The translations under genes and the position numbers were made by a program. Under the pieces are notes generated by a model. That model was not told the DNA's origin. It made no database searches and saw only the letters and a list, made by a program, of their open reading frames with translations. From contig CP060232.1 in NCBI GenBank assembly GCA_023898645.1, positions 180,001-212,000 of the forward strand: a DNA stretch of 32,000 bases, given 5' to 3'. This stretch comes from Candidatus Saccharimonadota bacterium. Its GTDB lineage: Bacteria > Patescibacteriota > Saccharimonadia > Saccharimonadales > Saccharimonadaceae. Below are positions 13,231-32,000 of the stretch, piece after piece. Positions within the stretch are counted from its first letter, which is position 1. Every line of letters begins with the position of its first letter.

Positions 13231-13877
13231 TGTTTGCTGCTACGAGTGCCTTTTTTACTGCATCTGCAGCCTTGGTGACAGGCTATCTGTCTACAGGAGC
13301 TGGAGATAGTTCTGCTACATCTAGGACAACCGCCACGTGGAATCATATTGTGGATGACACAACCAACGGTTACTTAGTTGTCTATGTAATGCACTATAAT
13401 AGCGCTTACACAATCTCCTCCGTTACTTGTAATGGTACGAATATGACTGCGATTAGTGCTCAAGTAAATTGGTCTGACGGAGGTAGTTATGGCTTGAGGG
13501 CATACGGTATTGCAAATCCTACGGTAGGAACAAATACAATTGTAGCTACACTTTCGTCAAGTACGTACATAACTGGTCAGTCGGTATTCTACTCTAATGT
13601 AGATGGTTCTAATGTATCTACGAGTACTACTTTCTCGAATGCTTCTATTCCTTGGTCTGACTCTGTAACTGTACCGGCGAGTGGTATGGTTTCTCATGCC
13701 TTCGGTTCGCTTGGCGCACCAGCGGACACTCCAACTGGCGGAACGATTCGATATAATTACGGTACGCATTATAACTGGCTTACTATACAAGATACGGACA
13801 CATCAGATACCTTTGCTACAGTAAGTGGCAATGGCCGCGGCTGGGGGGCTATTAGTGTATCTCTTCCCCGTGCCTGA
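13230..13877 (+). CDS. Hypothetical protein (215 aa from ATG 13230), paralogue of the next gene
   Basis: The ORF track opens at 13194, but the ATG at 13230 overlaps the giant gene's stop as TAATG. The protein shares the pattern T.TW.H....G..V...........V..V.Y.G.......L......Y.........YG......G...... with the following ORF. Confidence 0.7.
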   Translation: MFAATSAFFTASAALVTGYLSTGAGDSSATSRTTATWNHIVDDTTNGYLVVYVMHYNSAYTISSVTCNGTNMTAISAQVNWSDGGSYGLRAYGIANPTVGTNTIVATLSSSTYITGQSVFYSNVDGSNVSTSTTFSNASIPWSDSVTVPASGMVSHAFGSLGAPADTPTGGTIRYNYGTHYNWLTIQDTDTSDTFATVSGNGRGWGAISVSLPRA

Positions 13878-14520
13878 TTCTGGGTATAGTCCTCCGCCAC
13901 CTCCTACGTTAGACTTTCTTGCCGCTGGCGATACTGCAGATAATAACTCATTAAAGACTCTCACCTGGTCGCACACTACCACTGCTGGTGCATGGGTGTT
14001 TTTATGGTTGGCACATTTCGCCCAGACTGGTGGTCCGAATACTGTTACTTATGACGGGAATGATATTACTGGAAACTTATTAGCATCTACAGCTTATACC
14101 GATAGTACCTATCTTAAGTTATATGGTTTTCAGGATGTCACAGGTGGTACAAAAACTTTTGCGATAACTCAAGGTGGCGGTAACACAATGAGGTATGCCG
14201 TAGCTAATTCTGTATCTTATACGGGCATAGCATCGGTGGGTACGCCAGCAACTGCTACTGGTACGCTCACGGAAACGATTAATTGTGTCTCGAATCAATA
14301 TATCTTGCAGTCTTTTGCACGATACTCAGGTACTGCTACAGGTACTATGAATGCTGCTTTCAGCGGCGGTGCGGCTGGAATAAACATTTTTGACAATGTA
14401 GTGCGCGCGACAGGAGGTCGAGGTGGTATATTGATTAACTTTGCCGATGCTAGTACTACATTTTCACTTTCCGATAGTCTCGTAGCGCATAGTATAGGGG
14501 TTGTACTAACGAGAACGTAG
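13825..14520 (+). CDS. Hypothetical protein (231 aa), paralogue of 13230-13877; start uncertain
   Basis: The ORF overlaps the previous gene by 53 nt in the +1 frame. The alternative start is GTG at 13870. It contains a PPPPP stretch and the paralogous core LTWSHTTTAGAWVFLWLAHF...VTYDGNDIT...LKLYGFQDVTGGTKTF. Confidence 0.65.
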   Translation: MAMAAAGGLLVYLFPVPDSGYSPPPPPTLDFLAAGDTADNNSLKTLTWSHTTTAGAWVFLWLAHFAQTGGPNTVTYDGNDITGNLLASTAYTDSTYLKLYGFQDVTGGTKTFAITQGGGNTMRYAVANSVSYTGIASVGTPATATGTLTETINCVSNQYILQSFARYSGTATGTMNAAFSGGAAGINIFDNVVRATGGRGGILINFADASTTFSLSDSLVAHSIGVVLTRT

Positions 14521-14521
14521 T

Positions 14522-14539
14522 TAAGGATTTTTATCCTTA
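14522..14539 (+). terminator. Weak hairpin after the giant-gene operon (TAAGGAT-TTTT-ATCCTTA)
   Basis: A perfect 7-bp stem (14522-14528 / 14533-14539) with a TTTT loop lies 2 nt after the stop at 14520. It is AT-rich and has no downstream U-tract, so this is a low-confidence terminator. Confidence 0.3.
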
Positions 14540-14622
14540 TGAAGTAACTGCTGTCTCTGGAACGATATATCTTGGTACAGATAGAGCCCTCAATATGTTT
14601 GGATTACATACCTGCTGGCCGC

Positions 14623-14631
14623 TGGTATACT
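14623..14631 (+). promoter_or_regulatory. Candidate extended -10 element (TGgTATACT) upstream of cassette A
   Basis: It has the same TGgTATA[AC]T form as the lepA element. A weak -35-like ATTACA lies at 14603-14608 with a 17-nt spacer. The element is ~120 nt upstream of the first cassette gene. Confidence 0.3.
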
Positions 14632-14753
14632 TACATTTATATGGTGAATGAACGAATCAATAAATAAATCTCATATTATGATAGTGCATAAAGCTATAGT
14701 GGGGTAAGCTTGTATGTGTGGCGGACCAATATGATGCTGATATGTGCGAAATT

Positions 14754-15653
14754 ATGAAGAGAACAAAGCTCATGGCTGCTACATTGGTGACAATTCTATG
14801 TTTTTTACTTGCTCCTGCCCAGACGGTATGCGCCATAAGAGATATAAAGGGTCTAGCGCTCGCTCCCTTACGAACAGAATTGTCAGTTTCGCCGAGTGAG
14901 ACAATCAGTCGCAAACTCCAACTTACAAATTATTCAGATACGCAAATGACCGTGCGCTTGGACGCCGAAGAGTTTGGGGTGGTGAATCAGCAATACGATT
15001 ATTCGTTTGACGCGCAGTCTGATGTGTCGAAGTGGGTGTCGTTTGATTCTCCTGAGGTAGATATTGATCCTGGTAAGACTCATGTGGTGTCGTATGTTGT
15101 AGACGTGCCGCAAAATGCCGAACCGGGCGGGCGATATATAAGTCTCTTTGCATCGAGCGATGTACAAACTGCACCGGGCGAAATCCACACCGAGCAACGA
15201 ATCGCGTCGCTGCTATATTTGACCGTAAGGGGCGACGTAACGCGAATTGGCAGCCTGAAATCACTCAAAAGCCCGGTCGTGTTTGACGGTTATGAACCAT
15301 GGAAGTTGGTTGTCGCGAATACCGGCACGGCGCATTTTCGTAGTAAATACACAGTCAGTGTGAGGAGCATATTTGATAATAGCGAGGTTGCCTCGCGGAG
15401 TGGTGATTCGCTCGTACTGCCGCACACCACGCGAGCTATCTCGGCGCAGATGCCAGTATTGAAATATGTAGGCGTGTATCGAGCCGTATATACCGTTGGG
15501 CTGGGCGATGCGCCTGCGGCTAAGAGGGAATTTATAATCTACTTTTTGCCCAAGCAATCGTATGTGCCGCTTGCTTCGCTAACTGTCATAGTCATTGCGG
15601 GAATATCGTATGTAGTCTGGAAACTGCGACAACGAACGAAAAAGACTGCCTAA
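14754..15653 (+). CDS. Cassette A, type-1 anchor protein: signal peptide, beta-rich ectodomain, C-terminal TM helix plus basic tail (DUF916/DUF3324-like layout)
   Basis: The ORF track opens at GTG 14718. The ATG at 14754 gives a textbook signal peptide (MKRTKLMAATLVTILCFLLAPAQTVCA). The motif NAEPGGRYISLFASS is present. The C-terminus is PLASLTVIVIAGISYVVWKLRQRTKKTA. Paralogue of 26037-26936. Confidence 0.8.
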   Translation: MKRTKLMAATLVTILCFLLAPAQTVCAIRDIKGLALAPLRTELSVSPSETISRKLQLTNYSDTQMTVRLDAEEFGVVNQQYDYSFDAQSDVSKWVSFDSPEVDIDPGKTHVVSYVVDVPQNAEPGGRYISLFASSDVQTAPGEIHTEQRIASLLYLTVRGDVTRIGSLKSLKSPVVFDGYEPWKLVVANTGTAHFRSKYTVSVRSIFDNSEVASRSGDSLVLPHTTRAISAQMPVLKYVGVYRAVYTVGLGDAPAAKREFIIYFLPKQSYVPLASLTVIVIAGISYVVWKLRQRTKKTA

Positions 15654-16189
15654 TCAATATCTGGCACGGCAGTGTATACGATCGATGTGGTGTAATTGCC
15701 CGCTGGTTTTGCAAGGTCGACCTTGACACCGTAAGTGATAGTAGTGATATCGCCATACATTGCTGGGCCAGTGAGCGAGCGGATGAGTGTGTCGGTGAGC
15801 GAAGAGCCAACGAAATTGTTGGAACCATCGGTGTTGTACCCCCATGTATTTATTGCCAAAGGGGCAGGAGAGACATTGCCGGAAGTTGGTAAAACATCGC
15901 CAAGGTTGTCCATGTCGGTACTTGGTTCGGAACGCAGATAGAGTTTGTGACCAACTACGTCGGTAGAAGTAACGGTGACAGTGCTCGTGCCAGTCACTTG
16001 TGAACCCGATGAGGTGGGTGTGACGGCAAGCGAAACGTCGCCGTCGGTGCTAATGGCGATGTAGGTGGCGGACCCATACGGCACGTTTTCGTTGTATTTG
16101 CCTTGGTTGTATGAAGACGCATGCACTAGAGGTACGAATACAAATACCGCAACAACGCTCACTCCGATAAAGGCTATGGTTTTCTTCAT
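15650..16189 (-). CDS. Cassette A, small secreted protein (179 aa), WxL-like C-terminal strand pattern
   Basis: The signal peptide is MKKTIAFIGVSVVAVFVFVPLVHA. The mature part contains ...TVTVTSTDVVGHKLYL...NTWGYNTDGSNNFVG...AGNYTTSIVYTAVPDID. Paralogue of 26939-27496. Its stop overlaps the convergent upstream gene's stop by 4 nt. Confidence 0.85.
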   Translation of the reverse strand: MKKTIAFIGVSVVAVFVFVPLVHASSYNQGKYNENVPYGSATYIAISTDGDVSLAVTPTSSGSQVTGTSTVTVTSTDVVGHKLYLRSEPSTDMDNLGDVLPTSGNVSPAPLAINTWGYNTDGSNNFVGSSLTDTLIRSLTGPAMYGDITTITYGVKVDLAKPAGNYTTSIVYTAVPDID

Positions 16190-16234: not shown

Positions 16235-17308
16235 ATGAAATATAGCAAGGGTAAACATTCGCGTAGGCAGACCATCCGAGGGTTGGTTTTTGCGTTTGTA
16301 CTTACGGTTACCCCCTTCTTGCAAGCGCCGTTTGCAAATGCCGGTACTATTACGAATCGTAAAATCACGCTTTCTACCTCTGTAGGGGATGCTTCTGGGG
16401 TTACGTATACATTAACGAGCGACGCCCTTCCGACTACTGGTACAGCTATCAAGTCTGTCGGTGTGCAGTTTTGTACGTCACTAGAGGGCGCTTGTTCTAC
16501 GCCTGCTGGTTTTTCTGCTTCTGCATCGACACTCGCTGTACAGCCTAGTGGTGTCGGCGCCGGGTCTGGATGGACAGTCAATACTGCCTCGGCCGGCTCT
16601 CTTCGTATTGTTAATGCAGCCAACGCTACCAATCCATCTGGCTCAGTCAGTATACAGTGGGGTGGAGTGCACAACCCTACCGCAACCAATACGACGTTTT
16701 ATGCCAAAATCACTACGTACTCTGATGCTGCGTGGACAACAGCAGTAGACTCATCGGACACTGCACTTAGTACCTCTGCTCAAATTCAAGTCGTGCTAGA
16801 TGTCAACGAGGCTCTTACATTTTGTACCGGCACTAGTATCACAGGCCAAAACTGCGCTACTGTCGCAGGGTCTACTGTGGATCTCGGTACTGCATCGACT
16901 ACTGCTACCGCAACAGGTACCTCGGTATTTGCGGCATCGACAAATGGCGAGCATGGGTATACTGTCACGGTAACCGGCCCGACACTAACTTCAGGAAGTA
17001 ACACTATTACGGCTATGGCTGCGAACGCTGCATCTTCGGTTGGTACAAGTCAGTTCGGTATCAATCTTGTGAGCAATGCTACTCCGTCTGTAGGATCTAA
17101 CGTCAGTGGCACAGGTACGGCCGCGGCTACTGCAAATTATAATACGGCTAACTCATTTCGATTTGCTTCAGGAGATGCGGTGGCTAGTGTAAGTGTTCCT
17201 ACCAACGCCAACGCGTTTACAGTCAGCTATATTGCGAACATTGCGGGTGTAACTCCTCCGGGCATTTACACGACAAATCTGCATTATGACGCCACTGCGA
17301 ATTACTAG
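16235..17308 (+). CDS. Cassette A, 357-aa secreted Thr/Ser/Ala-rich protein (putative fibre/surface subunit)
   Basis: The signal is MKYSKGKHSRRQTIRGLVFAFVLTVTPFLQAPFANA. The protein is T/S/A/G-rich and ends ...VTPPGIYTTNLHYDATANY. Paralogue of 28580-29653, which is also 357 aa in the ORF track. Confidence 0.85.
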   Translation: MKYSKGKHSRRQTIRGLVFAFVLTVTPFLQAPFANAGTITNRKITLSTSVGDASGVTYTLTSDALPTTGTAIKSVGVQFCTSLEGACSTPAGFSASASTLAVQPSGVGAGSGWTVNTASAGSLRIVNAANATNPSGSVSIQWGGVHNPTATNTTFYAKITTYSDAAWTTAVDSSDTALSTSAQIQVVLDVNEALTFCTGTSITGQNCATVAGSTVDLGTASTTATATGTSVFAASTNGEHGYTVTVTGPTLTSGSNTITAMAANAASSVGTSQFGINLVSNATPSVGSNVSGTGTAAATANYNTANSFRFASGDAVASVSVPTNANAFTVSYIANIAGVTPPGIYTTNLHYDATANY

Positions 17309-17395: not shown

Positions 17396-18400
17396 GTGAG
17401 AATGAAGAGAATATTTAATCGAGCAACGATTTTGATTATCGCTATGCTTGTTTCCGTGTCGTTGCTCCCAGCGGATTTGTATGCGCAATCGGCAGGAGCT
17501 GCACAAGGTGTCCAACTAAGTCCATCGATAATCGAGTTGAATGCTGAGCGCGGGGGTATTTACACCCTTACTGTAGAGGTGACAAATGTTACGGCTGGGG
17601 ATTTAGACTACGCAGTTTCAGTAAATGATTTTACTTCTAAGGATGAAACAGGCTCGCCAAAGGTGTTACGTAATTCTCAACTGCCTAAGCAGATTTCAAT
17701 TCGTACATGGACCACGCCATCCGTATCTTCTTTTCACCTTAATACACGCAAAAGTAGTACGGTTGAGTTTAAGGTAATCGTACCAGCAGATGCCGAACCG
17801 GGTGGCCACTACGGTGTACTGGATTTTTCCGGATCTAATACAAACATAAAGCAAACAGGTGTTGGGCTGACGGCAAGCGCAGGCACGCTGCTGCTTGTGA
17901 AGGTCGACGGCGCTATCAAGGAGAATGCTTCGATTGCTTCGTTTTACACTGTGAATAATGGCAAAGAGTCGAACTTTTTTGAAAATAGTCCGGTGAGTTT
18001 TATTACCCGGGTTCAAAATACCGGCAACATTCATATCAAGCCGTTTGGCGCCATTGAGCTAAAAAATATGTTTGGATCGATTGTGGCTACACTGCCGGTA
18101 AACAAAGTGCAGTCTAATGTTTTGCCTAAGAGTATTCGGCGTTTTGACAGTACCTATGGTGAGTATATGATCGGTTTTTATACTGCAACGGTAACACTCG
18201 GCTATGGATCGCAGGGGCAAGCGATTATTGCAAGTACGTCGTTTTGGGTCATACCATACAAATTGATAGCGACCATTCTACTCGTGATCGCGCTGGTTAT
18301 CTTTATTCTCAGAAGGATACAGATAGCGTACAATAGGAGAGTAATCAAAAAATACAAAAACGCACAACAAAAAGATGATTCGAAAGAAAGCAAAAACTAA
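17396..18400 (+). CDS. Cassette A, type-2 anchor protein: signal peptide, ectodomain, C-terminal TM helix plus basic tail
   Basis: The start is GTG 17396 or ATG 17402. The signal is MKRIFNRATILIIAMLVSVSLLPADLYA. Internal motifs are ADAEPGGHYGVLDF and NTGNIHIKPFGAIELKNMFG. The C-terminus is FWVIPYKLIATILLVIALVIFILRRIQIAYNRRVIKKYK. Paralogue of 29672-30769. Confidence 0.85.
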   Translation: MRMKRIFNRATILIIAMLVSVSLLPADLYAQSAGAAQGVQLSPSIIELNAERGGIYTLTVEVTNVTAGDLDYAVSVNDFTSKDETGSPKVLRNSQLPKQISIRTWTTPSVSSFHLNTRKSSTVEFKVIVPADAEPGGHYGVLDFSGSNTNIKQTGVGLTASAGTLLLVKVDGAIKENASIASFYTVNNGKESNFFENSPVSFITRVQNTGNIHIKPFGAIELKNMFGSIVATLPVNKVQSNVLPKSIRRFDSTYGEYMIGFYTATVTLGYGSQGQAIIASTSFWVIPYKLIATILLVIALVIFILRRIQIAYNRRVIKKYKNAQQKDDSKESKN

Positions 18401-19517
18401 AACTACTCGGTATAAAGTCAAAAAGGTTGCGCATCCGATAGCTACCAAGTTAAAGCTTTTGCAACATGCCCATACCGGGCGTATTGTTCATCGTCACCAT
18501 ACGTCGTATCCAGTTCTATTAATACTTCTTGTTATTACGGGATTTTTTGTGTTCGTTGGGTATGATATTTCGGCGGCCGATACAAATGTGACCGTCGGTC
18601 TTACCGTGCCTGCGGAGCCACCTACCGAAGGTGCGGTAATCACATCGCCCAAAAATGGTACCGTTTCTAAAAAGGCAATAATCGATGTTAAAGGAACATG
18701 TTCTATTACGTCTGAAGTCGTTGTGTATAGTAATAACACGCTTGTTGGTTCGACATTATGCACGACAGAATCGACATTTCAGCTGAAAATTCAGCTATTT
18801 GGTGGCATTAATAAACTGACAGCATTGAACTATAATGGCATGAACCAAGCTGGGCCGATTACGCCTAGCGTGAAAGTGATATACGTGGCACCTCCAAATA
18901 CAGGAGCCACAGAGGTACCGGTGTACCCAATCGTGGTTCCGGGCGTAACGCCAACGTCGCCTGAATCTTGTACGCAAAAAGCAACGTCTGATGCGTGTAA
19001 CAAAACATATGTGGTGTCGTGCAACGACTACAGCTCAAACAAGGGCATTCCGGTATCAAAAGAAGTTCGCGCAGCAATCATTTGCCTGCAACGTCATGTG
19101 AGTACCGCAGGAGAAACGATAATCGGCATATTGGTGTGGGGCGGCAGCCCGCCATATGCCGTCACGATTAACTGGGGCGATGGTTCTGCGGACTTGGTAA
19201 AGAGTATAAGTAAGCCGGGGTATTTTACGGTCTCAAAAAAGTACACTGAAAAAGGCCAATACACCATTGAGGTGCAGTCTTTTGATAGTAATGGTAAGCA
19301 GGCATTTATGCAGGCGACAATTGATGTTTCCGGACCAGAAAAGCCAAAAGATTTTATTGGCTATGTAGGTAATAGCATGAATCTATCTTGGTTTGATTCG
19401 CCCGTTCCAACGTATTTTCTTGCTGTCGCAATCGTGATTGGATTTTGGGCTGGTGATTATTTTGAGCGGGCGATTCTTGCAACTCGCAAGGTACGCGGAC
19501 GTCGTCGGCATGCGTAG
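18375..19517 (+). CDS. Cassette A, doubly anchored protein: His-rich N-terminal motif, TM, Ig-like and PKD-like domains, C-terminal TM plus Arg tail
   Basis: The N-terminus is ...KLKLLQHAHTGRIVHRHHTSYPVLLILLVITGFFVF. The PKD-like signature is VTINWGDGSA...KKYTEKGQYTIEVQSFDSNGKQA. The C-terminus is PTYFLAVAIVIGFWAG...RKVRGRRRHA. It overlaps the previous gene by 26 nt. Paralogue of 27530-28516. Confidence 0.85.
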   Translation: MIRKKAKTKTTRYKVKKVAHPIATKLKLLQHAHTGRIVHRHHTSYPVLLILLVITGFFVFVGYDISAADTNVTVGLTVPAEPPTEGAVITSPKNGTVSKKAIIDVKGTCSITSEVVVYSNNTLVGSTLCTTESTFQLKIQLFGGINKLTALNYNGMNQAGPITPSVKVIYVAPPNTGATEVPVYPIVVPGVTPTSPESCTQKATSDACNKTYVVSCNDYSSNKGIPVSKEVRAAIICLQRHVSTAGETIIGILVWGGSPPYAVTINWGDGSADLVKSISKPGYFTVSKKYTEKGQYTIEVQSFDSNGKQAFMQATIDVSGPEKPKDFIGYVGNSMNLSWFDSPVPTYFLAVAIVIGFWAGDYFERAILATRKVRGRRRHA

Positions 19518-24337: not shown

Positions 24338-24523
24338 ATGTTTGGAATAGGGACACCTGAATTAATCATTATCCTGCTGATCGTCCTGTTGTTGGTCGGT
24401 GGAAAAAAACTGCCAGAACTAGCACGTAGCGTAGGCCAGTCAATGCAAGAACTGCGCAAGGGCATGAGTGATGGGTCAAAGAAAACAACAACACGATCTA
24501 GCGAAGAAGCAGAAGAAGCCTAG
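24338..24523 (+). CDS. tatA: Twin-arginine translocase subunit TatA/E
   Basis: MFGIGTPELIIILLIVLLLVGGKKLPELARSVGQSMQELRKG is the canonical TatA TM plus amphipathic helix. SD GGGAG lies upstream. Confidence 0.93.
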   Translation: MFGIGTPELIIILLIVLLLVGGKKLPELARSVGQSMQELRKGMSDGSKKTTTRSSEEAEEA

Positions 24524-25661
24524 TACGCCTAACAAAAACCTGACGTTTTTGGAGCATATTTACGAGCTTCGAACACGTTTGTTTTGGGTGGTATTTGCGC
24601 TTGTTGTCGCATCGGCAATAGGCTTCCAGTTTAAGGATCAATTGATTAGTTTGGTCATGGCACCGCTCCATGGCCAAAAGCTAATTTATTTGACTCCTGG
24701 TGGTGGGTTTAGCTTTATTTTCACCATTAGCATTTATTTCGGTGCTCTTTTGTGTATTCCGATCGCTGTTTATCATATGTATCGCTTTATGGAGCCGTTA
24801 TTGGGTGGTACTTCGCGAAAAGTCGTTGCGGCATTTATAATTATTTCTGCTTTTCTGGCGACAGCAGGCGCTTCGTTTGGCTATTTTGTAACCGTTCCTG
24901 CGGCCATAGATTTTTTGGCAACATTTGCCGGCAATGCCGTGGTGCCAAGCCTTACGGCGGAGTCGTATCTTAGTTTTGTGGTTACATACATATTCGGCCT
25001 TGCAGCATTATTCCAAATTCCGCTGCTTCTCTTTATTTTCGATTATGTACGACCATTGCCGCCAAAGGCACTACTGTCGGCTCAGAGATACGTTATTATA
25101 GCCGCTACAGTTTTGGCGGCGATCATCACGCCTACCCCAGATGCTTTGAATATGGCCATTGTTGCCATACCTATTATTGCCGTGTATGAAGTAGGCGCAA
25201 TCGCTGTGTATATTCGACACCGCGTAGGAGGAAAACGCTATGTTGTTGGGCGGAATACTTTGGATGGCGACGAACCACTAACCGCCATTATTGAAGAGCT
25301 CGAACGATCACATTCCGAAAAAGAGCAGGTGAGGCAGCCGGACTTTGAGGAAGACATGGAATTTGCTTTTGACGATGAACTTGATGTATTTGCCGACGAA
25401 GCGTACGAACCAGTTGCACCCGCCGCTGAATTAAACGAAACGAAGCCAGTGGTGGCTACTGCAAACGTTGCGCCAGTGCAAATAGTATCTTCGCCTGTTC
25501 GTCGCAGCGCGATGGATGGCATGGTGCGTGGCCGAGCTCAACCTGTCGCAATTCGGCCCCCTGCAAGAAACGTACAACCTGCGCGCATGCCGCAGCGACC
25601 AACCATACAGTCTCGACCTATGCGTTCTGTGGACGGTTTTTCGATGATGAGTCGGGCGTAA
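24468..25661 (+). CDS. tatC: Twin-arginine translocase subunit TatC with ~145-aa C-terminal extension
   Basis: LTFLEHIYELRTRLFWV matches the TatC N-terminal HL.ELR.R motif, followed by six hydrophobic segments. The ATG at 24468 overlaps tatA by 56 nt, and there is no in-frame ATG or GTG after the tatA stop. The residues after ~250 are acidic and then Pro/Arg-rich. Confidence 0.88.
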   Translation: MMGQRKQQHDLAKKQKKPSTPNKNLTFLEHIYELRTRLFWVVFALVVASAIGFQFKDQLISLVMAPLHGQKLIYLTPGGGFSFIFTISIYFGALLCIPIAVYHMYRFMEPLLGGTSRKVVAAFIIISAFLATAGASFGYFVTVPAAIDFLATFAGNAVVPSLTAESYLSFVVTYIFGLAALFQIPLLLFIFDYVRPLPPKALLSAQRYVIIAATVLAAIITPTPDALNMAIVAIPIIAVYEVGAIAVYIRHRVGGKRYVVGRNTLDGDEPLTAIIEELERSHSEKEQVRQPDFEEDMEFAFDDELDVFADEAYEPVAPAAELNETKPVVATANVAPVQIVSSPVRRSAMDGMVRGRAQPVAIRPPARNVQPARMPQRPTIQSRPMRSVDGFSMMSRA

Positions 25662-25744: not shown

Positions 25745-25954
25745 ATGCAACCGATAAAGACGCAAGTGAGTGATTTGCTAAACAAGCAAATGGACCGACA
25801 GGATTTTTTGAAACATGTCGGAATTGGCTTAATTGCGATTACTGGGCTAAGCAGCGCACTTCGTTTTCTGTCTATTCAACAGCACAAAGTTGAAGGTGGG
25901 TACGGTAGCGCCGCATACGGTGGCAGCGAAGACGGCAACTCGAGTCGTTTGTAA
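25745..25954 (+). CDS. Mini-protein P2 (69 aa) with Tat-like motif (DRQDFLKH), paralogue of P1/P3
   Basis: The sequence is MQPIKTQVSDLLNKQMDRQDFLKHVGIGLIAITGLSSALRFLS...EGGYGSAAYGGSEDG.... SD AAGGAAA lies upstream, and a strong terminator follows. Confidence 0.7.
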   Translation: MQPIKTQVSDLLNKQMDRQDFLKHVGIGLIAITGLSSALRFLSIQQHKVEGGYGSAAYGGSEDGNSSRL

Positions 25955-25974: not shown

Positions 25975-26010
25975 ACAGCTGCCAAAGCGAATATTGGCAG
26001 CTGTTTGATT
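25975..26010 (+). terminator. Intrinsic terminator after P2
   Basis: A perfect 10-bp stem pairs ACAGCTGCCA (25975-25984) with TGGCAGCTGT (25995-26004). The loop is 10 nt, followed by TTGATT. Confidence 0.65.
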
Positions 26011-26036: not shown

Positions 26037-26936
26037 ATGCAATGTTTGGAGACAATGTTTAAAATGACGATACAAAAAATAGCGGTTGCACTTATCTTTT
26101 CTGTTGCGTCGACGCTTGCGTCGGTGCCATCAGTCGCCACCGCTGCAGGTGTGGGATACGGACTCTCGGTTTCGCCGCCGCGACAAACACTTGATTTGGC
26201 TGCAGGGTCGACGAAAACGGCGTTTTTTACCGTTAAAAACGCTACCGACAAGTCAATGGTAGTAGATTTGAGCGTAAAAGAATTTTCGGTGAGTGATAAA
26301 ACGTACGACTACGTTTTTAGCAAACCCGAACACGAATGGGTAAAGACGCGGCTCGAGCAACTAACATTGCAACCAAATCATGCCGCGAAAATCATCTATG
26401 ACGTAACAGTCCCTGAAAGAGCAAAACCGGGCGGGTACTATTTTGCACTTTTTGCGAGCACAAAAGTCAATGGCGCCGCCTTGCCCGGTACGGAACAAGT
26501 AGCAACGTTGCTCTATGTTACTGTCGACGGCAAGCTTGTGCGCACGAGTGTATTGCAAAATGATTCCGTGCCGTGGTTTGTTATGGGAGACGAAATTCCG
26601 TATAAATTTAGCGTGAAAGACACGGGCAACGTGTATTTCACGGCGTATTTTTACGGAAAGGTGAACGGACTTTTTGTCGACCAGCCTGCCTCTGGCACGA
26701 GCCATATAGTAATGCCCGGCGCAACGCGAACGATATCTGGTTCGGTACCCACGCCCTTTTTGCCGGGAGTCTATACGATGACCTATGGATACAAAGTAGA
26801 CTTCGCAAACATTGAAATCGTTAAAACGACCTTGGTAATATTTATTCCTCCGTGGTCAATTGCCGCGTCTGTGTTCGTGCTGCTTCTTGCCTTGTGGTTG
26901 AGGCAAAGGCGATATATAAAGAAAGAGCAATCTTAG
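26037..26936 (+). CDS. Cassette B, type-1 anchor protein (paralogue of 14754-15653)
   Basis: Possible starts are 26037, 26055 and 26064. The signal is ...MTIQKIAVALIFSVASTLASVPSVATA. Internal motifs are KEFSVSDKTYDYVF, RAKPGGYYFALFAST and LLYVTVDGK. The C-terminus is WSIAASVFVLLLALWLRQRRYIKKEQS. Confidence 0.85.
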   Translation: MQCLETMFKMTIQKIAVALIFSVASTLASVPSVATAAGVGYGLSVSPPRQTLDLAAGSTKTAFFTVKNATDKSMVVDLSVKEFSVSDKTYDYVFSKPEHEWVKTRLEQLTLQPNHAAKIIYDVTVPERAKPGGYYFALFASTKVNGAALPGTEQVATLLYVTVDGKLVRTSVLQNDSVPWFVMGDEIPYKFSVKDTGNVYFTAYFYGKVNGLFVDQPASGTSHIVMPGATRTISGSVPTPFLPGVYTMTYGYKVDFANIEIVKTTLVIFIPPWSIAASVFVLLLALWLRQRRYIKKEQS

Positions 26937-26938
26937 AA

Positions 26939-27496
26939 TTAAAGATTTTTTGCGGCGACCGTGTATACAACTCCCATCGTGTAGCTGCCGGCGCCTTTTG
27001 TGATGTCGGTCAAAACACCATATGTTACATTTGTGGCATCGCCACTTGTGTAGGGGCCATTGGCATCTTTGATAAGCGCAGGAGTGGTGAGCATTCCCAC
27101 GTAGTTCGATGAACCGTCGGTATTGTAGCCCCAAGTATTTACTGTTAACGCGCTCGGACTGCCATTGTTGCTCGTTGGTATTACGTAGGTTCCGTTTGTC
27201 ATGTCTGTACTGTTTGGACAATACACGTATAGTCGATACCCAACAACGTCGTTGGTAGTGACTGTTACTGTATGCGATGCCGAACCGGAATATTGGGATC
27301 CTCCGGGCGTGAGGTTCATCGACACGTTACCTCCAAGGGAAATCGTTAAACTCGTTAATGAGCCAAAAGGAGCATTTGCGTCGAATACACCTTGGCCAAA
27401 TGGTGAAGCGTGTACGGGGAATTGCATCATGATACTGCCGGCTGTCATGAGCCCTGCCAAAAAGATGTGAGTTTTAGTTACCGTAAAGCGCATCAT
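26939..27496 (-). CDS. Cassette B, small secreted protein (185 aa; paralogue of 15650-16189)
   Basis: The signal is MMRFTVTKTHIFLAGLMTAGSIMMQFPVHA. The mature part contains ...HTVTVTTNDVVGYRLYV...NTWGYNTDGSSNYVG...AGSYTMGVVYTVAAKNL. It is convergent with the previous gene, with a 2-nt gap. Confidence 0.85.
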   Translation of the reverse strand: MMRFTVTKTHIFLAGLMTAGSIMMQFPVHASPFGQGVFDANAPFGSLTSLTISLGGNVSMNLTPGGSQYSGSASHTVTVTTNDVVGYRLYVYCPNSTDMTNGTYVIPTSNNGSPSALTVNTWGYNTDGSSNYVGMLTTPALIKDANGPYTSGDATNVTYGVLTDITKGAGSYTMGVVYTVAAKNL

Positions 27497-27529
27497 TACT
27501 AGTAACTATACTATATCTGTACTATACTT

Positions 27530-28516
27530 ATGCTTGTGAAGCGCGTCCACAAGGCGCTCAAACTGCGCCACCACAAACACACAGGAAAATTTCTCCATCA
27601 CCGCCACACGTCTTATCGGGTATTGTTTTTTTTGATGCTTATGCCCATTGGTATGTTGGCGCTGGTTGGGCAATTGGTGAGAGCAAGCGACTATGAAGTC
27701 ACGGCATCTGTGCCTGCCACAATTCCAAGAATCGCCCCAGTCATTACTTCTCCGGCGAGCGGGCTAACAACGACAAACAGTCAGATCACCGTGCGAGGTA
27801 CGTGCCCATTGGGGCACGTCGCAGGAATCGTAGCAATATACGAAGGAAAGAAATTATTAGGCGCACAGCCATGTACTGCAGACGGCACGTTCTCGGTACC
27901 AATTACATTGTCTTACGGTCATCATGTGCTTGTCGCTACCGTAATGGCAATTACAAAAGAAGTTGGTTTGAGTAGTAGCCCTCTGATTGTTACGCGCGAA
28001 CATCCTTTTTCACTTACTATCAATACCCCACTTGAGCCAACGCCAATAATAATAAAAACTGACGATCCGTTTATCATTATCGGATCAGATGGTAACGCAA
28101 CGTGGAAGGGAAGTTTCAAAGGGGGTACTCGTCCTTATGAAGTCACGGTGGACTGGGGAGACGGCAGTACGAGTAAATATATTGGGGCGGATACGTCTGA
28201 GCAGGTGTTTAGCCATCACTATGCAAAGCAACAGGCATATACTGTCATTATTAAAGCCAGCGACGCTAAGCACAACTCAGTCACCCTATATAGCGTTGCG
28301 TTAACACAAGGTTTGCAGCAGGTAGCAGTGGTAGAGGGCGGCATGTGGACAATTTCGCCATCGCTAGAAACTGTGCAGCGGTATCTTATCTATACGTATG
28401 TCATTACCTTATCGAGCCTGATGTTTATGTGGTATTTGCAGCATGGTCGATTGCTGGTGTGGTCGGTGGTCCGCAACAAAAGACACGTCCGGCATCGTCG
28501 ACCTCGGTCACACTAA
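27530..28516 (+). CDS. Cassette B, doubly anchored His-motif / Ig-like / PKD-like protein (paralogue of 18375-19517)
   Basis: The N-terminus is ALKLRHHKHTGKFLHHRHTSYRVLFFLMLMPIGMLAL. The PKD-like signature is EVTVDWGDGSTS...HHYAKQQAYTVIIKASDAKHNSV. The C-terminus is a TM segment followed by RNKRHVRHRRPRSH. Confidence 0.85.
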   Translation: MLVKRVHKALKLRHHKHTGKFLHHRHTSYRVLFFLMLMPIGMLALVGQLVRASDYEVTASVPATIPRIAPVITSPASGLTTTNSQITVRGTCPLGHVAGIVAIYEGKKLLGAQPCTADGTFSVPITLSYGHHVLVATVMAITKEVGLSSSPLIVTREHPFSLTINTPLEPTPIIIKTDDPFIIIGSDGNATWKGSFKGGTRPYEVTVDWGDGSTSKYIGADTSEQVFSHHYAKQQAYTVIIKASDAKHNSVTLYSVALTQGLQQVAVVEGGMWTISPSLETVQRYLIYTYVITLSSLMFMWYLQHGRLLVWSVVRNKRHVRHRRPRSH

Positions 28517-28579
28517 TGCATTGTGCTTGTGTTATGACACCGCTTACGTTATACTGGCACCAAAGTTATATGTACATTC

Positions 28580-29653
28580 ATGCTGAAAGAGAAAACCGGG
28601 CGTATCTCGATGAGAATTAACCTGCATAGCATCAAAAAAATACACGTCGCAGTAGCTGCGTTGTTTGTTTTTAGTGTCGTAGTTTCTCCACTTGTTGCGC
28701 GCAATGTCTTTGCAGCAGCCACGCAATCATTCGTACGGTTTGATCGTATGAAAATAAGCACGGCTACCACTGGTACTGTGTGCTTTATGTCGGCAACCAC
28801 GGCAACTGAAGCAACCGTAAAAGTAACGTTCCCTACAGGATATACGCTGAGCGGTACTTTAGGAGATTGGACTGTCGATACGACCAACCTCGCGTGGCCA
28901 GCTGGCGGTACGGCATGGCCGAGTATCAATACCGCCACAAATGTTACTGGCCAAGTGGTTACATTCCCGAGTGGCGATTTGACTGTCGGCACCCTCTACT
29001 GCTTTAACTGGACAAACTCCGCTGCGGTACAAACCAAGTCGAGTGCTACAAGCTCGAACACTGGCCAGATCGACACATACGATAGCGGCCCAGCTCTTAT
29101 TGACACGGCGCCTTATTCTACGGCAACGATTACCGACGATCAGATTGTCGTTACCGCGACCATCCCGACTACGTTTTCGTTTGCTTTGAGCGGAAACACC
29201 GATGCCCTCGGTACCATTACGACTGCCGCTGTTGCATCGAGCCCAACTCCTCGCACGGTGACAATTGACACGAATGCATTTAACGGCTGGATGGTATGGG
29301 CAAAAGATTCGAACGCCGGCCTAAAATCAGTGAACGCCGGCAACTATCTTATTGGGTCTACAACCCCAGGTTCGAATAGTACGCTGTCGGCTGGCACTGA
29401 GGGCTACAACACAGGTGTCACTCAATCACAGGTTGGCGGTGCCGGTACAATTAGTGTGGCAGCTGCCTTTGTGGGCGGTCTTGCTGGTAAGGGTGGTGGG
29501 CTCGACACATCACTACGTACATTGGCATCATCAGACGGTACTGCCGATACTGCAGTTTTGACTCTTACGAACAACGCAGCTATCAAGGGAACTACTCCAG
29601 CAGCTTCAGACTACACCGATACGATTACCGTTATCGGTGCAGGATTGTTCTAA
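28580..29653 (+). CDS. Cassette B, 357-aa secreted Thr/Ser/Ala-rich protein (paralogue of 16235-17308)
   Basis: The start is 28580 or ATG 28610 (MRINLHSIKKIHVAVAALFVFSVVVSPLVARNVFA). Internal segments are ...DDQIVVTATIPTTFSFALSG...NGWMVWAKDSNAGL.... It ends AASDYTDTITVIGAGLF. Confidence 0.85.
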   Translation: MLKEKTGRISMRINLHSIKKIHVAVAALFVFSVVVSPLVARNVFAAATQSFVRFDRMKISTATTGTVCFMSATTATEATVKVTFPTGYTLSGTLGDWTVDTTNLAWPAGGTAWPSINTATNVTGQVVTFPSGDLTVGTLYCFNWTNSAAVQTKSSATSSNTGQIDTYDSGPALIDTAPYSTATITDDQIVVTATIPTTFSFALSGNTDALGTITTAAVASSPTPRTVTIDTNAFNGWMVWAKDSNAGLKSVNAGNYLIGSTTPGSNSTLSAGTEGYNTGVTQSQVGGAGTISVAAAFVGGLAGKGGGLDTSLRTLASSDGTADTAVLTLTNNAAIKGTTPAASDYTDTITVIGAGLF

Positions 29654-29695
29654 AAGTTTACGGTTTCTAGCTTGTGTACATTGGCTAGATGTATA

Positions 29696-30769
29696 ATGAG
29701 ATTAATGATTTTAAAGAGGGGTAGCAGATTGTATTTTCTGATTGGCTTGTTGCCAGTCATGATTGGTGTGCTCGCCATGGCTCCACTCAGTGTATATGCC
29801 GCCAAAACACCTTCCGATTTTTCACTGTTGGTGACGCCGTCTCCGATTGTGGCAACTTTGAAGCCCGGCGAATCGAGAGATCTAGAGCTCAAAATACGCA
29901 ATGGCTCTACAGGCACCGAGGCATTAAAGATAGTGCCTCGAAGGTTCACTATAAATGACAAAACTGGGCAGGTATTAATAGACGACAAAACTGCTCCAGA
30001 TATTGCACAGTGGATACGTTTTAGCAAACCGACATTCACTGTAGAGTCAGGGGAGTGGATGACCGAAAAAATCCATATTGCGTTACCCAAAAACACAGGA
30101 TTCAGCTACTCATTCGTGTTGCTTATTCAAAGAGCGCAGGATACAACTGTCATAGAATCGGGCCGATTAATTAAAGGTTCGGTCGCGGTGTTTACTCTTA
30201 TAAATGTAGATCGTCCTGGCGCTGTGCGTAGCCTGACGGTAGAGAAATTCGTGGCGTCGCAATCAATGTACGAATATTTGCCTGCCTCGCTAACAATGCA
30301 GTTTAGGAATAACGGTAACACGATCATTCAACCGTTTGGCAATATTTTTATTCAACGAGGCAGCAATGATGCGTCGCCGATTGCAACCCTCCCAGTCAAT
30401 AACCAAGCCGGATATATTTTGCCAGGGAGTAATCGAGTGCTAACGGCCCAATGGTCAGGCGGTTTTCCTTTATTTAAAGCAACAACCGCTTCCGATGGTA
30501 GTCAAAAAACGAGCGAAGAGTGGGACTGGTCAAAATTGTCTCAATTTCGTATAGGTGCTTACACGGCAAAGCTAGTGGCAGTATACAACGATGGGTTGCG
30601 CGACGTTGCTATTCAAAAAGAAACCTCATTTTGGGTGTTGCCATGGAAAATATTGTTAGGAGCGGTGGCCGTAATAGCAATTCTTTTATTGGGAGTGTGG
30701 AGTATTATCCGCAGGATATTCAAACTATTTAGGCGACCCAAACGCAGCGAGCAAAAACCAGAAGAGTAA
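29696..30769 (+). CDS. Cassette B, type-2 anchor protein (paralogue of 17396-18400)
   Basis: The ORF track opens at TTG 29672, and ATGs follow at 29696 and 29705. The signal is MRLMILKRGSRLYFLIGLLPVMIGVLAMAPLSVYA. An internal motif is NNGNTIIQPFGNIFIQ. The C-terminus is FWVLPWKILLGAVAVIAILLLGVWSIIRRIFKLFRRPKR. Confidence 0.82.
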   Translation: MRLMILKRGSRLYFLIGLLPVMIGVLAMAPLSVYAAKTPSDFSLLVTPSPIVATLKPGESRDLELKIRNGSTGTEALKIVPRRFTINDKTGQVLIDDKTAPDIAQWIRFSKPTFTVESGEWMTEKIHIALPKNTGFSYSFVLLIQRAQDTTVIESGRLIKGSVAVFTLINVDRPGAVRSLTVEKFVASQSMYEYLPASLTMQFRNNGNTIIQPFGNIFIQRGSNDASPIATLPVNNQAGYILPGSNRVLTAQWSGGFPLFKATTASDGSQKTSEEWDWSKLSQFRIGAYTAKLVAVYNDGLRDVAIQKETSFWVLPWKILLGAVAVIAILLLGVWSIIRRIFKLFRRPKRSEQKPEE

Positions 30770-30824: not shown

Positions 30825-31028
30825 GTGAAAGAAACAAAAGAACTGACAAGTGAGCTGTTTGCAAAGGAAATGACCCGCAAGGAATTCGTGCAGCTTGCAG
30901 GTATGGCAATCATCGCTTTGTTTGGCGTTAATAATTTTCTTTCGTTTCTTCTTAAGAGCGGTGGCAAGGCTATGCATTCCAATGCACAAGCCGGTCGTGG
31001 CTTTGGTTCGAGCAAATTCGGGGTATAA
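30825..31028 (+). CDS. Mini-protein P3 (67 aa) with Tat-like motif (TRKEFVQL), paralogue of P1/P2
   Basis: GTG start, with AGGGGA 8 nt upstream. The sequence is MKETKELTSELFAKEMTRKEFVQLAGMAIIALFGVNNFLSFLLKSGG...GRGFGSSKFGV. Confidence 0.68.
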   Translation: MKETKELTSELFAKEMTRKEFVQLAGMAIIALFGVNNFLSFLLKSGGKAMHSNAQAGRGFGSSKFGV

Positions 31029-31367: not shown

Positions 31368-32000
31368 ATGCCTACTCCGCAACGCCTCCCCATAGTCAAC
31401 TCCGACGACGGTGTTTGGGGTGATATTCTTCGCCAATACCTTGCGAAGGAGCACTTCAACGACGATACCGACAATGCCATCAACGGCGGTCACCAAAAAA
31501 TCACCATCCAGCCGGGCACCGCAGCGGCAGGTACCGCTCCGCTCAAGTTCACCAGCGGTACCCTGCTCACCACTCCCGAAGCCGGAGCCATGGAGTTTGC
31601 CGGCGATAACTACTACCTTACGGACACGTCTGGCCCGACTCGCCGCAAGATTGCCGCCTACGACGACACCTCTGGTGCCACCGGCGATATCTACTACCGC
31701 AATTCGTCTGGCTACTTCACACGACTCGGCATTGGTTCTACTGGCAACGTTCTTACTGTTGCCGGAGGTATCCCATCGTGGTCTTCTTCTATTAGCAACA
31801 CGAGTACCATCACTCTCAAAGACACAAACTTCACCCTGCAAGATGACGGCGATACCACAAAGCAGCTCAAGTTTGAACTCACTGGCATCGCTACTGGCAC
31901 TACTCGAACGTGGTCATTCCCCAACGCCGACTCGGCCTTTGTTGGTACCAATACGGCGCAGACGCTGACAAATAAGACGATCCAGGCCCCGACAATCACC
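31368..32000 (+). CDS. Second giant tail-fibre-like surface protein, N-terminal 211 codons (partial, continues past window)
   Basis: This ORF is not in the supplied track because it has no stop in the window. The ATG at 31368 is preceded by AAAGGAGGG. My translation is MPTPQRLPIVNSDDGVWGDILRQYLAKEH...GGHQKITIQPGTAAAGTAPLKFTSGTLLTTPEAGAMEFAGDNYYLT...TAQTLTNKTIQAPTIT. It is collinear with, and mostly identical to, the first ~210 aa of the 5068 gene. Confidence 0.9.
   Translation, partial: MPTPQRLPIVNSDDGVWGDILRQYLAKEHFNDDTDNAINGGHQKITIQPGTAAAGTAPLKFTSGTLLTTPEAGAMEFAGDNYYLTDTSGPTRRKIAAYDDTSGATGDIYYRNSSGYFTRLGIGSTGNVLTVAGGIPSWSSSISNTSTITLKDTNFTLQDDGDTTKQLKFELTGIATGTTRTWSFPNADSAFVGTNTAQTLTNKTIQAPTIT

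Follow-up and report, generated by a model that had tools for sequence, protein, structure and literature searches.

Two five-gene cassettes of predicted surface proteins, A and B, lie 6.5 kb apart in the genome of a Candidatus Saccharimonadota bacterium (assembly GCA_023898645.1, contig CP060232.1, positions 180,001 to 212,000 of the forward strand; this 32,000-nucleotide stretch is hereafter the window), and they raise the question of what their products assemble and whether the one cassette is a copy of the other. A first-pass annotation of the DNA had read them as copies of one five-gene block, with one gene permuted, kept by the genome as two specificities of a module. The analysis reported here finds it very probable that the products of both cassettes build Pam-type pili, assembled by donor-strand exchange and without an usher, with each cassette resembling one half of the published pam operon and the two together probably specifying two fibre types. 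The cassette pair is a real and coherent Pam set that varies the layout of a system first reported in 2026, and it does not amount to a new kind of system. Pam-type pili are so far known only from the Candidate Phyla Radiation (CPR)/Patescibacteria.

All ten open reading frames (ORFs) were found at the coordinates and on the strands first assigned to them, in the order type-1 anchor, small protein, 357-amino acid (aa) protein, type-2 anchor and PKD/His protein in A, and type-1 anchor, small protein, PKD/His protein, 357-aa protein and type-2 anchor in B. The peptide strings quoted in the annotation were all present in the translations, and signal peptides and C-terminal membrane helices were located where it had placed them (Table 1). 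The small gene and the type-1 chaperone gene converge in each cassette, overlapping by 4 nt in A and standing 2 nt apart in B; A4 and A5 overlap by 26 nt. The ORF lists hold only five genes for each cassette, and no usher-sized gene lies in or beside either one. Between the cassettes are genes for a class-III aminotransferase (rocD-like), a DDAH/arginine-dihydrolase-like protein and an adenylate-kinase-like protein (adk-like), together with hrcA, grpE and tatC, and no additional gene of the four Pam families is found elsewhere in the window. B4 has an exact match in H6797_00975, and those homologues with a named source are from Saccharibacteria or Patescibacteria.

Table 1. Genes of cassettes A and B, and two small genes beside cassette B (positions in the window).
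Gene	Predicted product	Position	Strand	Basis
A1	Type-1 membrane-anchored chaperone-like protein	14718..15653	+	homology, transmembrane helix, chaperone tree
A2	Small single-domain pilin-like subunit	15650..16189	-	BLASTP, weak NF058581 match
A3	Two-domain Pam pilin, PamA/PamE class, linker QIQVVLDVNEALTFC	16235..17308	+	NF058581
A4	Type-2 membrane-anchored chaperone, PamD-like by position	17396..18400	+	tree, BLASTP, transmembrane helix
A5	PamR-like tether, long form, His motif, putative donor strand DTNVTVGLTVPAEPP	18375..19517	+	NF058578
B1	Type-1 membrane-anchored chaperone-like protein	26037..26936	+	BLASTP, transmembrane helix, chaperone tree
B2	Small secreted single-domain pilin-like subunit	26939..27496	-	BLASTP, hhalign
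B3	PamR-like tether/terminator, putative donor strand DYEVTASVPATIP	27530..28516	+	NF058578
B4	Two-domain pilin, B (probably PamB) class, linker/donor strand DDQIVVTATIPTTFSF	28580..29653	+	hhalign
B5	Type-2 membrane-anchored chaperone	29672..30769	+	AlphaFold2, Foldseek, chaperone tree
	Small TatB_1-like protein (69 aa), located between tatC and cassette B	25745..25954	+	NF038009, E 1.6e-17
	52-aa TatB_1-like small protein, directly after cassette B	30870..31028	+	NF038009, E 4e-7

The Pam pilus was described for Ca. Mycosynbacter amalyticus by Troman et al. (bioRxiv 10.64898/2026.03.03.709456), the source of the NCBIfam models NF058578, NF058579 and NF058581. In that organism, two-domain pilins polymerise by placing an inter-domain linker strand into the incomplete immunoglobulin (Ig)-like C-terminal domain of a neighbour; PamC and PamD are PapD/FimC-like proteins having a C-terminal membrane helix and are proposed to prime the subunits; the strandless, single-domain PamT is the proposed tip; and PamR, which is RbmA-like and carries a strand at its N-terminus and a helix at its C-terminus, is the proposed fibre end and tether, with no usher being involved (bioRxiv 10.64898/2026.03.03.709456). 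The M. amalyticus homologues form extracellular helical filaments solved by cryo-electron microscopy (bioRxiv 10.64898/2026.03.03.709456), and the mechanism in the preprint is carried over to the window by homology. So transferred, Sec would export all cassette products; the membrane-held type-1 and type-2 chaperones would cap each subunit at its incomplete, Ig-like C-terminal domain; and the 357-aa pilins, in which a linker serving as the donor strand would join an N-terminal beta-sandwich to a C-terminal acceptor domain, would polymerise. The small opposite-strand protein, having the C-terminal domain only, would most likely be at the tip, since it contains no recognisable donor-strand linker. 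The N-terminal strand of PamR would imitate the cognate donor strand and so end the fibre, and its C-terminal helix would tie the fibre to the membrane. Because each half has its own PamR and its own pair of type-1 chaperone and small subunit, two separate fibre types are probable rather than one mixed fibre.

Both PKD/His proteins, A5 and B3, match the PamR model below its equivalog cut-off, and both have the C-terminal transmembrane helix and a strand-like mature N-terminus. From its N-terminus, B3 comprises a His-rich motif, a transmembrane/signal segment, a putative donor strand, Ig/PKD-like domains (with sub-threshold Pfam matches to Glucodextran_B, Big_3_5 and PKD) and a C-terminal transmembrane helix. 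The PamR strand immediately following the N-terminal hydrophobic segment resembles the linker of the cassette's own pilin: in cassette B, DYEVTASVPATIP of B3 resembles DDQIVVTATIPTTF of B4 (DYEVTASVPA against QIVVTATIPT), and in cassette A, TNVTVGLTVPAEPP of A5 resembles the A3-family pattern I.V...VPP. The resemblance co-varies across lineages, with DYLVTATVPA accompanying QISVTATVPA in L001 (L numbers are loci of other genomes, described below), and a PamR strand of the form Y.V.AVVPGP accompanying the pilin linker QIVVSAVVPP in L005-L018. Such mimicry and co-variation fit fibre termination by N-terminal strand donation. They suggest that the tether of each cassette is matched to its own pilin, and the presence of two PamR genes so matched argues for two separately terminated fibres.

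Two further features of PamR genes were seen. The His-rich motif (H.HTG....H..HTSY) is conserved and lies on the cytoplasmic side, directly before the N-terminal hydrophobic segment of long-form PamR (window 18465-18510 and 27569-27615; also L001, L003, L010, L019, L024, L027, L046 and L062). The shorter PamRs that canonical operons encode, of about 300 aa, lack it; a role in sorting or metal binding is possible. Locus L014 carries a second, long PamR-like gene (10004-11134, 376 aa) alone among housekeeping genes, with mnmA and alaS upstream and an ftsA-like gene and mltG downstream, 3.4 kb from a canonical pam operon that includes a PamR itself. L011, L015, L042, L046, L062 and L066 likewise carry a second PamR gene of a similar kind.

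The pilin identification begins with A3, which passes NF058581 (CPR_Pam_pilin_C) at an expectation value (E) of 2e-49 and 167 bits, against a cut-off of 55, and has 1006 clusters of homologues. Among 44 A3-family pilins, six match Pfam DUF2808 (best E 2.3e-6) and one matches SCPU, the spore-coat-U/archaic pilin domain, at E 0.058. B4 has 1524 homologues, the top 120 of them 65-88% identical to it, and its linker/donor strand, at about residues 186-201, carries a motif that is conserved in B-type loci. Both pilin families have a conserved linker motif where the two predicted domains meet, and the PamT-like 250-aa proteins lack it.

The relationship of the two pilins to each other is distant. 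No BLASTP match between A3 and B4 was obtained at E <= 10. By hhalign, using alignments of 44 A3-family and 32 B4-family sequences, the families are related with a probability of 81% (E 1.2e-5) over A3 residues 170-357 and B4 residues 173-357, that is, the linker and C-terminal domain. This alignment scored 46.8, whereas 30 column-shuffled controls had a maximum of 21.9 and a reversed alignment scored 16.5. Similarity of the N-terminal halves was undetectable even by this profile comparison. The 357-aa proteins had been singled out as identical in ORF length, which they are, but homologues range from about 344 to 380 aa, and, the relation being at profile level only and confined to the linker and C-terminal domain, the equal length is a coincidence.

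The small proteins form a family of about 185 aa with 410 homologues. Compared by hhalign with the A3-family C-terminal domain, the small family scored 48.6 (probability 89%, E 2e-6), against a maximum of 23.4 in shuffle controls; the same comparison with the B4 family gave a probability of 22%, which is not significant. Neither B4 nor the small proteins pass NF058581, and their link to the A3-family C-terminal domain is through hhalign only. From these profile comparisons, the small protein would be a single-domain subunit consisting of the pilin C-terminal domain alone. No window protein passes the PamT model NF058579 (an equivalog of about 241 aa), to which the small proteins have no match, and the small proteins may fill the PamT role. 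Searches of the A3, B4, small and B5 families against PDB sequences gave nothing meaningful, in a set that apparently does not contain PamA/PamB (25PZ, 25QA).

The four remaining proteins are anchored and chaperone-like. B1 has a signal peptide, a C-terminal transmembrane helix at residues 266-284 and two beta domains that are assigned by homology; it is related to A4 (BLASTP E 1e-10) and has an orthologue in L001 that is 52% identical. For B5, the true start is probably the ATG at 29705, giving the 354-aa form found in public records. The AlphaFold2 model of B5, with a predicted local distance difference test (pLDDT) score of 85.4, contains a signal helix, two beta-sandwich domains and a transmembrane helix at 314-342. 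Its best PDB matches by Foldseek are the Enterococcus faecium WxLIP structures 9i25/9i1y (E 1e-9), followed by CsuC, CfaA, FimC, DraB and YadV. A1, B1 and A4 share homology with B5, and all three have a hydrophobic helix at the C-terminus. On the model for B5, and on homology for A1, B1 and A4, the four anchors thus appear to be PapD/WxLIP-like chaperones with a C-terminal membrane helix, as are PamC and PamD.

Several observations weigh against the Pam interpretation or some part of it. A5 and B3 match NF058578 (CPR_pilus_PamR) at E 1.3e-49 and 169 bits and at E 1.6e-31 and 109 bits, respectively, both below the equivalog cut-off of 300. The match of A3 to the PamT model is likewise under the NCBI equivalog cut-off (115 bits against 240) and is through the C-terminal domain only. 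A2 matches NF058581 weakly (E 0.0049), and B4 has no NCBIfam match. The AlphaFold2 model of B4, from a 32-sequence alignment, has a pLDDT of 47.6 (60-70 in the N-terminal sandwich and below 40 in the C-terminal domain), so that the two-domain pilin fold of B4 is putative; Foldseek with this poor model returned generic Ig-like domains only, and that result was set aside. The placement of B4 in the PamB class, B5 as PamC-like and A4 as PamD-like is an inference from gene order, size and family behaviour. The roles of the chaperones, tip and PamR in M. amalyticus are themselves AlphaFold-based proposals, and no pair of type-1 anchor and small protein is described in the published system (bioRxiv 10.64898/2026.03.03.709456). 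A tip position for the small protein, a chaperone function for the type-1 anchor and a partnership between the two are likewise proposals. The claim that the five products work together as a module is very probably right, with components that match the pilins, anchored chaperones and PamR tether of Pam operons.

Other genomes were examined by a PamR-seeded scan of species-representative genomes, which gave 80 loci, nearly all titled Saccharibacteria, Saccharimonadia or Patescibacteria, with a few having other bin labels; M. amalyticus is not among them. The loci were annotated with the window proteins and with family hidden Markov models (HMMs), and copy numbers refer to 20-kb neighbourhoods. 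Three layouts recur. The commonest, layout 1, has a PamT-like protein of about 250 aa, one to four PamA-size pilins (400-460 aa), a 350-aa pilin, an A4-type chaperone and PamR. The ~250-aa pilin-like proteins of this layout are without the linker, and the one in L014 passes the PamT equivalog (296 bits against the cut-off of 240). Layout 2 has PamR, two to four B4-like pilins, a B5-type chaperone and one more chaperone. Layout 3 is that of cassette B and is found in L001. There, as in the window, it comes after hrcA-grpE-tatA-tatC; its B4 pilins number two, in tandem, and a giant gene stands behind it. The full five-gene cassette A was seen, among the loci compared, only in the close relative L003. 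In L002 a variant of cassette B (11497-15248) retains the type-1 chaperone with the small protein, together with two B5-type chaperones, and in place of PamR and the pilin it has four unrelated genes (209, 242, 525 and 237 aa), for which an NCBIfam search gave no match.

With these comparisons available, the origin of the two cassettes could be considered. Duplication of one ancestral five-gene module as a block, with both diverged copies kept as two specificities, would account for the occurrence of the same five families twice, including the opposite-strand small gene placed tail-to-tail with the type-1 anchor. Each gene of A had been said to have a clear paralogue in B, and an all-against-all BLASTP of the cassette proteins (database size set to 1e6) bears this out for four of the five pairs, at E 1e-18 or better, or 6e-17 for the type-2 anchors. 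The small proteins A2/B2 are 47% identical over 174 aa (E 8e-39), the type-1 anchors A1/B1 33% over 267 aa (E 2e-29), the PKD/His proteins A5/B3 39% over the N-terminal 129 aa (E 1e-18, with a weaker C-terminal segment) and the type-2 anchors A4/B5 24% over 354 aa (E 6e-17); for the 357-aa pair the relation holds at profile level in the C-terminal half only. Divergence is very uneven, at 47%, 33%, 30-39%, 24% and undetectable. With protein identities of 24-47%, synonymous sites of the A/B pairs are saturated and give no usable dN/dS. A neighbour-joining tree of 86 chaperones, made with score-based distances (Kimura distances were saturated) and 50 bootstraps, divides the anchors further. A1, B1 and their orthologues form one clade in 50/50 bootstraps, as A/B paralogues would. 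B5 belongs to a separate 14-member clade (50/50), and A4 is inside a large clade of chaperones from canonical pam operons, which adjoin PamR; A4 and B5, each with orthologues in many species, are never sisters. A3, furthermore, is 49-55% identical to pilins of layout-1-like operons of other species (L047, L056, L065, L080 and L082), in which PamT is present and the small protein and anchor1-small pair are not. L001 has cassette B without a cassette A between lepA and hrcA, and the small-protein HMM matches L001-L003 only, among 82 loci.

Block duplication is therefore unlikely, and the description of A and B as copies of one block with two specificities is not sustained. The tree and the A3 identities instead largely agree with independent assembly of the families, the outcome that the first-pass annotation had named as contrary to its own proposal. 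Judged from sequence relationships, the pilins, type-2 chaperones and PamRs of A and B are separate old lineages, with orthologues of their own in other Saccharibacteria, and only the pair of type-1 anchor and small protein looks like a duplicated A/B sub-module. Within that pair, A2 shows 43-54% identity to each member of a set of 111 B2-type proteins, which are mutually at least 52% identical (median 68%), and A2 is therefore an out-paralogue. With only this pair duplicated and the rest separate, cassette A is best read as a mosaic.

The published operon also offers an explanation for the permuted gene. In the M. amalyticus proteomics table the consecutive accessions are QHN43268 (36.5 kDa, unnamed), QHN43269 (PamB), QHN43270 (PamR), QHN43271 (PamD), QHN43272 (PamE), QHN43273 (PamA) and QHN43274 (PamT), so that the order, read in reverse, is T-A-E-D-R-B-(C), with PamR in the middle (bioRxiv 10.64898/2026.03.03.709456). 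The pilin-chaperone-PamR end of cassette A looks like the E-D-R half of this operon, and PamR-pilin-chaperone in cassette B looks like its R-B-C half. The difference in gene order that had been noted between A and B is thus real, and the position of PamR between both halves of the published operon accounts for it. In Supplementary Table S1 of the same preprint, QHN42421.1 (119 kDa, beside pilM) is labelled pamC and QHN43268.1 (36.5 kDa), which adjoins pamB, is unnamed; the labels of rows 38/39 may be swapped.

Compared with M. amalyticus, the window shares the pilin C-terminal domain, anchored two-domain chaperones, a PamR-like tether, the lack of an usher, the Saccharibacteria lineage and a giant tail-fibre-like gene alongside. 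It differs in that its genes form two cassettes, separated by 6.5 kb in which housekeeping genes lie; a PamR is present in each, as is an extra type-1 anchored chaperone with a convergent 180-aa single-domain subunit; a PamT (about 250 aa) and a PamA-size (>400 aa) pilin are missing, and PamR and PamT model scores are under the equivalog cut-offs. Pam pili, described in 2026 in one organism, are thought to be the structures with which ultrasmall parasitic CPR bacteria first touch their hosts. The window shows the system to be modular, in that two pilin classes can occupy separate cassettes, each having its own tether with an N-terminal strand that tracks the donor strand of its own pilin, and the pair of chaperone and mini-subunit with each cassette is previously undescribed. 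Testable predictions follow for the assignment of chaperones to subunits and for the specificity of fibre termination.

The resemblance of B5 to WxLIP raises a different possibility, that the cassettes are CPR counterparts of the WxL/Csc clusters of Firmicutes, in which a WxLIP-like anchor would hold a small and a large protein in a non-filamentous adhesion complex. WxLIP (DUF916 + DUF3324 + transmembrane helix) shares with the anchors a signal peptide, two Ig-like domains, a transmembrane helix at the C-terminus and a length of 300-365 aa. In these clusters one anchored WxLIP is accompanied by a small protein comprising the C-terminal domain alone and by a large protein extended by added N-terminal domains, and AlphaFold predicts that a WxLIP strand inserts into WxL (PMC10599100; PDB 9i1y, 9i25). 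Both of the top-ranking PDB structures for the B5 model are of E. faecium WxLIP, in one case in complex with a long WxL protein, and weak matches to the N-terminal WxLIP_PGBD domain occur in three of the four window anchors and 15 of 35 B5-family members. These matches (PF06030; A1 E 0.015, B1 E 0.043, A4 E 0.0042; 14-18 bits) are, however, all under the Pfam cut-off of 27.3, and matches to fn3_5 are stronger. PF11797 (HBD) has no match in the window anchors or in the 35 B5-family members, and the WxL domain has none at E <= 1 in the window proteins or 44 A3-family members. A profile search of PDB sequences, in a set that should include the 9i25 chains, also gave no WxL link, and WxL is not mentioned in the preprint (bioRxiv 10.64898/2026.03.03.709456). 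Foldseek scores for chaperone-usher chaperones are about equal to those for WxLIP; the M. amalyticus homologues form filaments; and the pilin linker and PamR strand are conserved as polymerisation would require. WxL clusters, moreover, are without the two anchored chaperones per cassette and the PamR tether, and Pam subunits polymerise and have no WxL-domain signature. A non-filamentous WxL-type complex is accordingly very unlikely, and Pam pili remain the preferred reading of the cassettes.

A broader relationship may still exist. Neither the WxL domain nor a WxLIP Pfam match above cut-off being found, homology of the Pam and WxLIP proteins can be put forward only tentatively: the Pam anchored chaperones and Firmicutes WxLIP could conceivably be one ancient family, with the type-1 anchor and 180-aa subunit as its minimal unit, an idea that we consider speculative. 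If this were true, monoderms in general would have a surface-assembly pathway without an usher, made up of an anchored chaperone and of small and large subunits with an incomplete Ig-like C-terminal domain in common, and the type-1 anchor/180-aa pair would be a dedicated chaperone and priming or tip subunit that can move between pilus operons. The structural match suggests that WxL surface clusters of Gram-positives may use related chemistry.

Other pilus classes fit less well. Chaperone-usher pili (Pap/Fim, Csu, CFA/I) share with Pam a PapD-like two-domain chaperone fold and the combination of strand-bearing subunits with strandless tip subunits. Pam differs from them in having no usher or outer membrane, membrane-anchored chaperones, a donor strand that is an internal inter-domain linker rather than an N-terminal extension, and a dedicated tether, PamR. 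No Pfam PapD_N, PapD_C or fimbrial match was found in the window proteins or the B5 family. A C-terminal LPXTG sorting signal was not found in the pilins (sortase itself was not searched for); an internal LPTTG in A3 and LPTSG in A2 are far from the C-terminus and are followed by no hydrophobic tail. By these features the cassettes belong neither to the chaperone-usher nor to the sortase-assembled pili.

Additional genes and non-coding features surround the cassettes. tatC is at 24468-25661, and the two small genes on either side of cassette B match TatB_1 ("twin-arginine translocation system-associated protein") below the cut-off, with R-x-x-F-[LV] preceding the hydrophobic stretch in each. 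In L001 the two corresponding sites are occupied by genes of 69 and 59 aa, and the L002 cluster contains a 69-aa gene. No twin-arginine signal was found in the Pam proteins of the window.

Each cassette has its own giant, tail-fibre-like neighbour, as does cassette B in L001. Upstream of cassette A is a gene for a 2720-aa protein (5068-13230), and a second such gene (31368-32000, + strand) starts just past cassette B and runs off the window end. Long stretches of its first ~200 residues are all but identical to the 2720-aa protein's N-terminus; neither protein has a signal peptide. The 2720-aa gene contains three direct repeats spaced by 1737 bp (579 aa; window 8755-12528), beyond the longest period (500) of Tandem Repeats Finder. 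A 300-nt segment of each is 95% identical, from which a recent internal triplication is inferred. Overlapping ORFs at 13194-13877 and 13825-14520 (+ strand; 227 and 231 aa), between the giant gene and cassette A, have no family matches and are 29% identical to each other over 86 aa (E 8e-4).

An invertible element was considered for the opposite-strand small gene and rejected, because only short, imperfect inverted repeats flank it and its orientation is identical in A, B and L001-L003. The start of the small gene is separated from that of the next + strand gene by 45 bp in A and 33 bp in B, AT-rich intervals with TATACT-like boxes, so that either the operon transcript runs antisense through the small gene or two divergent promoters are contained in the 33-45 bp gap. 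Promoter and terminator scans gave chance levels (30 sites where 27 were expected, and 23 where 18 were). Just one site near the cassettes makes a convincing terminator candidate, a strong hairpin of 11 pairs at 25975-26004 with a T-rich stretch after it; it lies between the 69-aa ORF and B1 and leaves about 30 bp for a cassette B promoter.

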